A stretch of 64,000 nt of DNA from a bacterium (GTDB lineage: Bacteria; Margulisbacteria; Marinamargulisbacteria; SXXA01; JAHFDB01), in NCBI GenBank assembly GCA_023249195.1, contig JAHFDB010000003.1, positions 7,561 to 71,560 on the forward strand. Reading direction: 5' to 3'. Shown here piece by piece: positions 22,197 to 25,597 of the stretch. The position numbers were made by a program, and so were the translations under genes. The notes beneath the pieces are model-generated. The model searched no databases and was not told where the DNA came from. It saw only the letters and a list, made by a program, of their open reading frames with translations. Within the stretch, counting starts at the first letter, position 1, and the number at the start of each line of letters is the position of its first letter.

Positions 22197-23324
22197 ATGC
22201 CCCTTATACAAACAACCGTTCCCTTACTCGACTTAACCGCCCAATACGAACCCATCAAAGACGATGTCCTCGCTGTTATAAAAGAGGTTTTTGACTCTAA
22301 AGTCTTTATTTTAGGGCCTAAAGTTACACAGTTTGAAGCCCAGGCCGCTGCCTATTGTCATGTCAACCATGCTATTGGAGTCTCTTCAGGAACCGATGCC
22401 ATTTTAATGGCCCTCATGGCTATGGGTATTGGACAAGGCGATGAAGTTATTACAGCACCCTTCACTTTTTTTGCAACTGCCGGATGTATTTCTCGCGTAG
22501 GCGCCACCCCTGTCTTTGTAGATATTGATCCTCACACCTTTAATATTGATCCTCACTTAATCGAAGCCTCTATTACGCCTCGCACCAAGGCCATTATGCC
22601 TGTCCATCTTTTTGGTCACATGGCCGATATGGACGCTGTGATGGCCATCGCAAAAAAACATGGGCTTTATGTCATTGAAGATGCCTCACAAGCGATTGGA
22701 TCGCACTATACCAACTCTAAAGGTGAGGTTAAATGGGCAGGTTCTGTCGGTGATGTCGGGTGTTTTTCGTTCTTCCCCTCTAAAAACCTCGGGGGTATTG
22801 GGGATGGCGGCATGATTACGACCCAGAATTCTCATTTGGCAGACACCCTTATAAAACTCAGGAATCACGGGGCACAAGAGCGTTATTTCCATGAAATGGT
22901 CGGCGGAAATTTTAGACTCGATGCCATTCAAGCTGCCGTGTTAAGTGTCAAGCTGCCCACGTTAGAGGAGCAACATCGGCTTCGACAAAAAAATGGGGCT
23001 TACTACAACGAGCATCTCCACTCACTTGTCACGATTCCCTTTGTTAAACCCGGATTTCGCATGATTTACAATCAATATACCCTTCGCACCCCAAAGAGGG
23101 ATGCCCTTCATGCATGGCTGGATCAACGTCAAATCGGTAACGCTATCTACTATCCCCTTCCACTGCATCTGCAAAAATGTTTTGCCCATTTAGGCTATGA
23201 GGCTGGCGACTTTCCTGAATCAGAAAAAGCCGCTTTGGAAGTGCTTTCTATTCCCATTTATTCAGAATTAAATACAGAACAAAAACAGGCGGTTGTTGAG
23301 GCCATAAAAGCGTTTTTTAACTAA
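22197..23324 (+). CDS. DegT/DnrJ/EryC1/StrS-family PLP aminotransferase (ArnB-like)
   Basis: Family-typical segments include the N-terminal region, LMALMAMGIGQGDEVI, PVHLFGHMADMD and the GG..G.G.GGMITT region. Confidence 0.75.
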   Translation: MPLIQTTVPLLDLTAQYEPIKDDVLAVIKEVFDSKVFILGPKVTQFEAQAAAYCHVNHAIGVSSGTDAILMALMAMGIGQGDEVITAPFTFFATAGCISRVGATPVFVDIDPHTFNIDPHLIEASITPRTKAIMPVHLFGHMADMDAVMAIAKKHGLYVIEDASQAIGSHYTNSKGEVKWAGSVGDVGCFSFFPSKNLGGIGDGGMITTQNSHLADTLIKLRNHGAQERYFHEMVGGNFRLDAIQAAVLSVKLPTLEEQHRLRQKNGAYYNEHLHSLVTIPFVKPGFRMIYNQYTLRTPKRDALHAWLDQRQIGNAIYYPLPLHLQKCFAHLGYEAGDFPESEKAALEVLSIPIYSELNTEQKQAVVEAIKAFFN

Positions 23325-23350
23325 GAAGGGTTGTCCTCTGGAAGCGTGGC

Positions 23351-23419
23351 AATGGGCCCGCGACGGTTTTAAAGCCACAAACGTTGGGTAGCCATTTTTA
23401 CCCACTTAAGCCATCCTTT
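23351..23419. repeat. Copy A of an approximately 70-bp imperfect direct repeat (about 85% identity to copy B); possible solo end or remnant of a mobile element
   Basis: aatgggcccgcgacggttttaaagccacaaacgttgggtagccatttttacccacttaagccatccttt aligns with 24598..24667. The 26-nt core gggtagccatttttacccacttaagc is identical in both copies. Confidence 0.8.
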
Positions 23420-23542
23420 ATTTCCCATCACTAGATTGCAGCTCTTCGCTTTTTTATGATCCTTTTGATCAATTAAGACAGCCACAATATCAACTACCGA
23501 AAAAAAACCAAGTTTGTTTTTCCCCATTGTAAAGTCAACGGA

Positions 23543-23743
23543 CTAGCCCCCTCCCACAAACTGTACAATCTCTAGCCTATCCCCATCCGAAAGACACAGG
23601 TCTTTAAATTGGGGATAGCGATAGAGCGTGTCATTAAGTTCGACTACGACACTTTGGGCCTCAATAGAAAGGCTTCTTAGAAGCAAAAGCAGAGGGATAT
23701 CTGCCTCAATGGTAAGGGGCTGACCGTTGCACAAAAGCTGCAT
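23543..23743 (-). CDS. thiS: ThiS/MoaD-like sulfur-carrier protein
   Basis: A 66-aa beta-grasp-sized protein ending in GG (IVQFVGGG). Confidence 0.5.
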   Translation of the reverse strand: MQLLCNGQPLTIEADIPLLLLLRSLSIEAQSVVVELNDTLYRYPQFKDLCLSDGDRLEIVQFVGGG

Positions 23744-23778
23744 GTACGTTATTTGACATGGCGCATAGTCAGCGCCAT

Positions 23779-24408
23779 TTAATGCAAAACCTGCATCCTA
23801 GGAATAGGCCAAATGGTAATGACGGCTTTTCCCAAAATATCTTTTCTGGAAACCACCCCCCAATACCGAGAATCATACGAATTTCCCCGATTATCGCCCA
23901 TCATAAAATAGCTGTCTGCAGGAATTTTTTTAGGGCCATAAAAAGTATCATCATTTTGAATATTGATTCCTGGAAATACTTCTAGTGTGCCATTAATATA
24001 AATCTCACCGTGTCTTACTTCAATCGTGTCATTGGGAAGGGCTACGCAACGTTTTACATATTGCACCCCGTCATTAAAAGGGGAATTAAATACGACAATA
24101 TCGCCCCGATGCGGAGGCCCAAACCGATATATAAATTTATTCACAAAGAGACGATCGCCTATTTGAAGGGTGGGAATCATGGACCCAGAAGGCACCTTTG
24201 AAGTTTGAAGTACAAAATGACGAAAAACCAAGGCCATGCACAAAGCCACCACAATGACTTCTACCGTATCCACTATGTGAAAGTGAAGGGTGTTCTTTAC
24301 TTTCAAGTCGGCTTTAAATTGCTCCCATTGATTTTGTTTATTTCGAATAAAAGTTAACATAAATATGGTTTTATCACAGCCATCAGGCTTTCGTAAAGGG
24401 CCTTGCAA
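23779..24408 (-). CDS. lepB: Signal peptidase I
   Basis: PSGSMIPTL (the catalytic Ser box), GDNRGNSYDSRYWG and KRCVALPND are present. Confidence 0.85.
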   Translation of the reverse strand: MQGPLRKPDGCDKTIFMLTFIRNKQNQWEQFKADLKVKNTLHFHIVDTVEVIVVALCMALVFRHFVLQTSKVPSGSMIPTLQIGDRLFVNKFIYRFGPPHRGDIVVFNSPFNDGVQYVKRCVALPNDTIEVRHGEIYINGTLEVFPGINIQNDDTFYGPKKIPADSYFMMGDNRGNSYDSRYWGVVSRKDILGKAVITIWPIPRMQVLH

Positions 24409-24443
24409 AACATGGACACCCTTGCTATACTTTTCTTTTTCAT

Positions 24444-24518
24444 CGCGGGGTGGAGCAGAGGTAGCTTGTCGGGCTCATAACCCGAAGGTCAGAGGTTCGA
24501 TTCCTCTCCCCGCTACCA
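24444..24518 (+). tRNA. tRNA-Met (CAT), initiator type, CCA encoded
   Basis: The acceptor begins CGCGGGG with a 1:72 mismatch, the anticodon stem has three consecutive G-C pairs (TCGGG/CCCGA), and the loop is CTCATAA. The T-arm is GGTTCGATTCC and the 3' end is GCTACCA. Confidence 0.85.
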
Positions 24519-24532
24519 AATTTATAGTTTAA

Positions 24533-24566
24533 AAAAAGCCTGCAGGAATGTGGGCTTTTTTGTTTT
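24533..24566. terminator. Putative Rho-independent terminator hairpin downstream of tRNA-fMet
   Basis: aaaaagcc / tgcaggaatgtg loop / ggcttttt is followed by tgttttt. The flanking A and T runs make it symmetric, so it may act in both directions. Confidence 0.45.
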
Positions 24567-24597
24567 TAGCTGTCTTTAAACTATAGTCTTAGACTGT

Positions 24598-24667
24598 AAT
24601 GGGCCAGTGACAGGTTTAAAACCACAGACGTCGGGTAGCCATTTTTACCCACTTAAGCTATCCTTTT
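24598..24667. repeat. Copy B of the approximately 70-bp direct repeat, ending 10 bp upstream of the transposase-like ORF
   Basis: taatgggccagtgacaggtttaaaaccacagacgtcgggtagccatttttacccacttaagctatccttt aligns with copy A. It contains an internal inverted repeat (gggta/taccc) and a cttaag palindrome. Confidence 0.8.
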
Positions 24668-24676
24668 TATACCTCT

Positions 24677-25597
24677 ATGAAAAAGAACGAACTCATCCGT
24701 TTTGACTGGGCCATTAAAAATATCCTTCGCAACAAGGCCAATTTTCCTGTCTTAGAAGGCTTTCTGTCTGAGCTTTTACACACCGATGTTAAAATCAACT
24801 CTTTGCTGGAAAGTGAATCCAACCAAAGGTTTGAAGAAGATAAAGGCAATCGGGTAGATATCTTGGCCGAACTCACCGGCAATAAAAAAGTCATCATCGA
24901 AGTCCAATGTTTTAGCGAATGGGAGTTTATAACCCGAATAGTTTCTGGGGTAGCCAAGGTCGTCATTGATCATCTGCACTCTGAAGACCCTTATGGAAAG
25001 ATTCAGCGGGTGATCTCGGTACATATTGTCTATTTTGATCTTGGGGAAGGTCAGGATTATATCTATCACGGAACCACCCAATTTAAAGGCATTCACAAGA
25101 ACGATATCTTGCAGCTTTCTCCCAAGGAAAAAGAAAAGTATCCCGATCATATTGATACCATTGCCTCGATTTTTCCAGAATATTTTATCCTAAAACTCGA
25201 TCAATTTGATTTGAAGATCAAAGACACTTTGGATGAATGGATGTATACCCTCAAGCAATTGGAAGTCAGACCTGAATTTACGGCAAAGGGCATACAAGAG
25301 GCCGGTCAAAAACTTGAACCTTTTAGGCTTTCAGAAGACGAGCGTCTAAGCTATGAGTGCCACATTAAAAACAACCGTATTTCAAACAGTGTCTTGGAAA
25401 CCTACTTTTCTGACGGGCGTTTTGAGGGTAAGGCAGAAGGGTTTGCAAAAGGGTTTGCAAAAGAGTTTAAAAAGTGGAAGTCGGAAGCCCAATCTCACTG
25501 GGTAAAAGCCAAGCATCAAGCCCGTACTCCGATTGAAGAACTCTCACGCATTACGGGTTTAACCATCGACCAGATTCAGGCTATTTTAGGTTCTTAA
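24677..25597 (+). mobile_element. PD-(D/E)XK nuclease-family putative transposase (Rpn/YhgA-like, TIGR01784-like)
   Basis: The D...EVQ nuclease core (VDILAELTGNKKVIIEVQ), the C-terminal EGKAEGFAKGFAKEF repeat and the terminal ITGLTIDQIQAIL helix are typical of this family. The gene lies next to a tRNA, with repeat copy B immediately upstream. Confidence 0.65.

Follow-up and report, generated by a model that had tools for sequence, protein, structure and literature searches.

In a 64-kb stretch of contig JAHFDB010000003.1, from a bacterium of the Marinamargulisbacteria (hereafter the window, meaning the whole stretch analysed), two imperfect direct repeats of approximately 76 bp lie on either side of a thiS–lepB–tRNA-Met block, the second of them immediately upstream of a gene for an Rpn family recombination-promoting nuclease (rpn). 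We propose that this repeat probably forms the non-coding 5′ module of an Rpn-family gene cassette specific to one lineage, of which the repeat in front of rpn (copy B) is the working copy and the repeat on the far side of the block (copy A) is an orphan. The proposal builds on direct observations of the repeat pair, its linkage to rpn genes elsewhere, a left boundary common to its copies, constraint on its core and the absence of RNA structure. The orphan copy is modest evidence that the cassette has been copied or moved, and the gain and loss of rpn as a single gene described in the literature (PMC10400941, PMC5350276) agrees with the cassette reading.

A repeat search of the window returned one two-copy family of 76 nt (23351–23426, copy A; 24598–24673, copy B), in direct orientation, 86% identical and 1247 nt apart from start to start, and blastn aligned them at 88.4% identity over 69 nt (E = 4e-16). 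Both copies extend a further 2 nt to the left, beginning with G(C/T)AATGGG at 23349 and 24596, which places the modules at 23349..23426 (copy A) and 24596..24673 (copy B) on the forward strand. The 26-mer GGGTAGCCATTTTTACCCACTTAAGC occurs exactly twice in the 64 kb, even with up to three mismatches tolerated (0 matches in 100 shuffles), and no third copy of the 76-nt module was found within the window. These values and the gene map agree with the original prediction, which described two copies of about 85% identity with an identical 26-nt core, 1.25 kb apart, with thiS, lepB and a tRNA gene between them. Copy B ends 4 nt before the rpn start codon, the similarity stopping 4–10 nt ahead of the ATG, and copy A occupies the intergenic region between thiS and a convergent DegT-type aminotransferase gene.

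The linkage of the module to rpn is seen in contexts unrelated to the window. Only three protein clusters in the database are more than 66% identical to the window Rpn. One of the homologues, on the metagenomic contig L001 (ENA ERZ27279977), is 81% identical at the amino acid level and carries the module at L001:299-376, again ending 4 nt before the ATG, among neighbours unlike those of the window (hisG, hisZ, a HAD phosphatase and a small basic protein). The DNA of the window and of L001 becomes homologous exactly at 24595/24596, corresponding to L001:298, and stays so almost to the end of the gene; copy A begins at that base as well. In the third cluster, represented by L042 (Rpn 78% identical to that of the window), the promoter-proximal ~55 nt of the module are kept (L042:~97-154) and the outer 20 nt are not. 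Two further contigs, L040 and L041, represent the window locus itself, with 99.8–99.9% identity. L001, which may come from the same genome as the window, derives from the same ENA sample as L041 and has a similar G+C content (42.5% versus 43.7%). At 37 metagenome loci whose rpn genes are more distant (≤66% identity) the module is absent and the upstream regions are unrelated, and an nhmmer profile of the module matched neither these 37 loci nor the lepB loci of relatives. A scan of a genome contig collection, in which the source genome was not included, with the 20-mer TAGCCATTTTTACCCACTTA gave one chance match on a Levilactobacillus contig, viral contigs yielded 0 matches to either the core or the outer block, and blastn of the cassette against plasmids and phages found no match. 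Because the same module stands upstream of the rpn genes of L001 and L042 and is missing at more distant rpn loci, it appears to belong to one rpn lineage and not to the site. The repeat had been read as the upstream sequence of the PD-(D/E)XK gene, and this is borne out by its presence before the nearest relatives of the gene in two further contexts; L001 and L042 speak against the alternative outcome, in which the repeat would be confined to two sites and missing in front of other members of the family.

The gene downstream of copy B (24677-25597, forward strand) encodes a protein of 306 aa that passes the family models TIGR01784 (64.4 bits, cutoff 52.1, residues 9–302 of 306) and PF12784 (PDDEXK_2; 63.4 bits, cutoff 27.4). 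It contains the motif NRVD61IL...IIE75VQ77, conserved in L001 and L042, in which D61, E75 and Q77 were matched by eye to D63, E82 and Q84 of RpnA, in the same order and at similar positions; the latter are the residues that were mutated in RpnA (PMC5350276). Four-residue repeats of the (K/L/M)AEG or GFAK type occupy approximately residues 242–268 near the C-terminus (window 25400-25480), and their number varies strongly among the three close homologues, from few in the window to more than 10 in L042 (repeat regions L001:1100-1200 and L042:~880-1080). A variable C-terminal region with four-residue repeats has been described for RpnS (PMC10400941). These features suggest that the window protein is a PD-(D/E)XK nuclease of the RpnL/RpnS toxin-antitoxin or defence type. 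An in-frame TTG approximately 10 codons ahead of the C-terminal repeats could be an RpnS-like internal start. No second rpn gene or rpn remnant was found anywhere in the window, including after copy A.

Comparison of the three genes (window 24677-25597, L001:380-1300, L042:156-1160) points to an unusual rate of protein change in the window. The window and L001 genes are 76–82% identical at four-fold degenerate sites, yet their proteins are only 81% identical, whereas L001 and L042 share 89% of their amino acids with only 49% identity at four-fold sites. On account of this contrast, amino acid changes seem to have built up in the window rpn at an unusual speed, owing to recombination or to selection that was relaxed or diversifying.

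Pairwise identities between the modules are similar (A–B 86%, A–L001 87.5%, B–L001 85%), and unique substitutions are spread over all three copies. Given that the copies are equidistant, that each has its own changes and that their identity is near that of the four-fold sites of the gene, the A, B and L001 modules are of similar age, and copy A is not a recent local duplicate of copy B. Most of the similarity is what recent common ancestry predicts. The core differs in this respect: a 28-nt segment GTAGCCATTTTTACCCACTTAAGCTAT (24635..24662, forward strand) is identical at 27–28 of 28 positions among A, B and L001, and a 24-nt invariant run among the three is longer than the count of variable columns predicts (permutation p = 0.009). 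Against L042, whose gene is saturated at four-fold sites (53% identical to the window, 49% to L001), 24 of the 28 core positions match (p = 3e-4), as do 43–45 of 60 positions in the stretch from TAAA to the ATG (p = 2e-3 and 4e-5), compared with 6–7 of the outer 18 nt. The match of the core to L042 in the face of saturated four-fold sites shows that the inner half of the module is under purifying selection; the outer block is specific to the clade of A, B and L001.

A predicted sigma-70-type promoter overlaps this core on the forward strand (24636..24664), with a -35 hexamer TAGCCA (24636-24641), a 17-nt spacer and a -10 hexamer TATCCT (24659-24664) located 12 nt before the ATG. The -10 hexamer reads TATCCT in L001 and TATTAT in L042, both of which keep the spacing and T1, A2 and T6 of the -10 element, and the equivalent in copy A is CATCCT (23412-23417), in which the first T is lost. 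The geometry of the promoter is kept in every copy that is linked to a gene, and only the orphan shows a degraded form. No Shine-Dalgarno sequence precedes rpn. Hexamers resembling a -10 element, placed 10–17 nt before the ATG without a Shine-Dalgarno sequence, recur at many genes of the window, which suggests that very short leaders are common in this organism. Examples of the gene starts are 2617, 5809, 45207, 50962 (minus strand) and 63616 (minus strand). Most of the genes listed lack a Shine-Dalgarno sequence, and the hexamers seen at many of them include TATACT, TAGAAT, TATAAT, TACAAT and TATCCT. The module is therefore probably mainly a promoter with upstream DNA and less a transcribed leader, and its invariant spacer probably holds an operator or repressor site, as would be plausible for a toxic nuclease gene. 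A minus-strand -10 element (TAAAAT) inside the core was also considered and dropped, as it is not kept in L042.

Copy A had been described as a solo copy without an open reading frame behind it, and the searches agree: no rpn-like sequence or remnant follows it at the protein or the DNA level, where similarity stays at the level of shuffles. We hypothesise the following course of events. The inner half of copy B would act as a promoter 12 nt before the ATG, which would give the rpn transcript only a very short leader, and a repressor site would overlap this promoter in the invariant spacer. The outer 19–20 nt (GTAATGGGCCAGYGACGGT) would mark the edge of the copied unit, and module and gene would have been placed at at least three locations in a short evolutionary time, namely the sites of window copy B, window copy A and L001. 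Copy A would be the remnant of one such placement, reduced to the module with a weakened -10 hexamer and probably without a function of its own. The route of copying could have been transposition, nuclease-stimulated recombination, or duplication followed by deletion.

Several points weigh against this explanation. Four copies of the module are known in all, and its specificity for rpn rests on three of the four. The similarity between A, B and L001 is near the neutral level and, outside the core, shows recent common ancestry only. Unique changes are no more numerous in copy A than in the copies linked to a gene, so that copy A might yet have its own function, and a loss of the whole gene that leaves a clean 76-nt module behind has no explanation. 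The predicted promoter matches the consensus at 8 of 12 positions in the window (9 of 12 in L042) and, at a scan threshold of 9 of 12, the window site goes uncalled.

Genes of the Rpn family are widespread, are routinely annotated as putative transposases and clearly move between genomes, although their products are currently viewed as toxin-antitoxin defence nucleases. To our knowledge, the transposase annotation has never been substantiated, and we know of no ends, target sites or mechanism of movement for rpn genes. It is unlikely in our estimate that the cassette is a true insertion sequence-like or homing element, in which the outer end of the module would be a terminal repeat and Rpn the nuclease of the element, with L001 the intact form (approximately 1058 bp), copy B deprived of its right end and copy A a solo left end. 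The attraction of this explanation lies in the outer 19-nt block GTAATGGGCCAGTGACAGG (24596..24614, forward strand), which forms a sharp left homology boundary shared by A, B and L001, and in the occurrence of the cassette in different neighbourhoods. In L001 only, the block is found inverted after the rpn stop codon: GTAATGGGCCAGCGACGGT at 299-317 recurs at 1337-1355, 37 nt past the stop, with 18 of 19 positions complementary (24 of 26 with one gap; 0 of 500 shuffles reach this), such that approximately 25 nt of the outer end of the module are inverted and the outer ends would bound a unit of about 1058 bp. However, the best inverted partners after the window rpn and after copy A do not exceed shuffles (82/500 and 92/500), copy B and rpn, the other window copy and the L001 unit have no visible target-site duplication around them, the outer block is not conserved in L042 (6 of 18 positions), and a second module that was broken up could just as well have left the inverted fragment of L001. 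No convincing flanking inverted repeats were found at 22 more distant rpn loci for which both flanks were available; only L010 rose above shuffles, and its candidate terminal inverted repeat was rejected since the score derives from a direct intergenic repeat of approximately 100 nt. Likewise set aside was an inverted match between L001:429-453 and L001:1359-1383 (25 nt, 80%), which lacks collinearity with the 19-mer pair and has only chance-level strength. Sequence downstream of copy A, which in a homing scenario might continue behind rpn, does so at shuffle level only. The earlier description of the repeat as the terminal sequence of a transposase element finds no support in the window cassette, which has neither terminal inverted repeats at both ends nor the target-site duplication that was to be looked for. 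According to Zhong et al. (PMC10400941), rpn genes are acquired and lost one gene at a time, with no flanking inverted repeats, target-site duplications or evidence of transposition; the same paper states that an autonomous transposase with a PD-(D/E)XK fold is not known. Its authors concluded that a transposase role is unlikely for Rpn proteins, which they see as toxin/intragenic-antitoxin defence nucleases. Kingston et al. considered that Rpn proteins might be eroded mobile or homing-like nucleases whose site is not known (PMC5350276). We rate as distinctly unlikely the related idea that Rpn recognises the outer 19–20 nt of the module, be it as an inverted terminal repeat of the kind seen in L001 or as a site of nuclease-stimulated recombination, making rpn a bounded mobile unit; copy A and the inverted fragment of L001 would in that case be footprints of Rpn activity.

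That the module is a generic dispersed intergenic repeat, REP-like, MITE-like or a reusable promoter module, found before rpn by happenstance, is very unlikely. It would account for copy A, which is not beside rpn, and dispersed repeats do occur near other rpn genes: the AT-rich contig L010 (L010:700-3163), whose rpn is 47% identical, has a different intergenic repeat of approximately 100 nt (core TAGTCACGAATGACACGAATTnACACGAA) at least 6 times, with copies that precede several small open reading frames and flank rpn on both sides. The module itself, however, occurs just twice in the 64 kb of the window, the distance to an rpn ATG is the same for three of the four known copies, and module divergence tracks gene divergence, L042 being the most diverged in both. 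Conservation of the core above the neutral level could also reflect a structured RNA, whether a 5′ untranslated element, a small RNA or an antisense transcript from copy A, which is directed into the 3′ end of the convergent thiS–lepB operon; a small hairpin able to sequester the AUG in copy B and L001 would fit as well. Single-sequence folds of all copies on both strands nevertheless have the energies of shuffles (z -0.40 to +0.95), the alignment fold reaches -4.95 kcal/mol with a covariation term of 0, and the module has no Rfam match even at E ≤ 1. The small inverted repeat GGGTA/TACCC and the AflII-like palindrome CTTAAG that had been pointed out in the core are both seen in copies A and B, and of these the inverted repeat is lost in the relatives (CAGTA...TACCC in L001; another dyad, AGCC-ATTTT-GGCT, in L042). 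The core is not a structured RNA, and an RNA function for the module is highly improbable. Lastly, two direct repeats that enclose a tRNA gene and are separated by 1.25 kb might be a purely local duplication or the attachment-site repeats of an element integrated beside the tRNA gene, as implied by the earlier view of this tRNA as an integration hotspot. Against this, the module accompanies rpn homologues on unrelated contigs, copy A resembles L001 at least as closely as it resembles B, neither repeat overlaps the tRNA gene, so that they are not direct repeats from a tRNA 3′ end around foreign DNA, and no integrase is encoded inside the bracketed block. The tRNA-Met, lepB, thiS ... DegT order is moreover kept in the relative L043 (LepB 64% identical), which lacks the repeat, and the adjacency of lepB and thiS is also found in L044, L045 and L047. 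Given this conserved order, the bracketed genes are ancestral core genes and no att-delimited island, and we regard a local or att-type origin of the repeats as extremely improbable.

Returning to the cassette explanation, its closest parallel among known systems is offered by the RpnL/RpnS systems and the E. coli proteins RpnA-E (YhgA-like; PF04754/PF12784, TIGR01784, COG5464), with which the window protein shares the family models and organisation as a single-gene unit in varying neighbourhoods and, judging from the sequences, probably also a D...E-x-Q core and, together with its homologues, a variable C-terminal region of four-residue repeats. Unlike the published rpn genes, which have no identifiable flanking repeats, this lineage has a bounded module of ~76 bp, with one orphan copy and, in L001, one case of the outer 25 nt inverted. 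With insertion sequences and MITE-like relics it has in common a left boundary shared by three contexts, a single-gene unit, an orphan copy resembling an end and inverted termini of 19–25 bp at L001; it differs in that the window copy has no right-end repeat, target-site duplications are lacking and the orphan carries the whole promoter module. Free-standing homing endonuclease genes, an analogy for Rpn raised by Kingston et al. (PMC5350276), are similarly nuclease genes, here with their own predicted promoter, that occur sporadically at intergenic sites, whereas no cognate site and no pair of empty and occupied sites was found here, and the sequence after copy A is not continued behind rpn. 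Copy A also resembles orphan promoters left by gene loss, such as solo long terminal repeats (LTRs) and remnant cassette promoters, in having the full module, a degraded -10 element and no coding remnant; it departs from them in its unusually clean deletion boundaries and in the lack of evident recombination of the LTR–LTR kind.

We regard the finding as ordinary overall, with one interesting lead, namely the outer 19-mer, with its sharp boundary, and the inverted form of it in L001. The locus presents one rpn lineage with a sharply bounded upstream module, and thereby offers a concrete sequence on which Rpn binding or cleavage and autoregulation could be studied. Were Rpn to recognise the outer block, it would be the first defined DNA end or target for a protein of the Rpn family; otherwise, the module would be a lineage-specific promoter region with a relic copy, useful mainly for annotation. 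One annotation point is that the repeats mark no island at the tRNA gene.

The genes around the module are as follows. The DegT-type aminotransferase gene (22197-23324, forward strand) precedes copy A, which is followed by the bracketed core genes thiS (23543-23743, reverse strand) and lepB, encoding signal peptidase I (23779-24360/24408, reverse strand, with the start probably at 24360). The tRNA-Met(CAT) gene (24444-24518, forward strand) has its own promoter-like site and a terminator at 24532-24561. Its earlier label as fMet is in keeping with initiator-type features judged by eye, a C1 x U72 mismatch topping the acceptor stem and an anticodon stem with three G-C pairs in a row. Downstream of rpn lies queC. 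In L043, two genes without a Pfam match (251 and 165 aa; L043:895-2313) fill the spacer between thiS and DegT in which the window has copy A, and this spacer appears to be a variable spot that could once have housed a cassette. A search for an empty-site allele via LepB homologues found none, the nearest relatives being too distant, with LepB only 61–68% identical and differing neighbours; the names that LepB homologues bear suggest an organism related to Margulisiibacteriota.

Three further observations concern the contigs compared here. L043 is a 61-kb contig with an assembly break inside the tRNA-Met gene beside lepB (L043:1-60). Beyond the inverted 19-mer of L001, an open reading frame of 28 very basic residues (L001:1434-1520; MGSLIKKRRKKMRKHKYKKYGRKMRARK) is preceded by a strong AGGAGG Shine-Dalgarno sequence; it may be akin to small ribosomal proteins of the bS22/THX type. 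Inside the DegT gene of the window, the 14-nt sequence ATATTGATCCTCAC occurs twice as an exact direct repeat, 21 nt apart (22522-22556), which is probably trivial.

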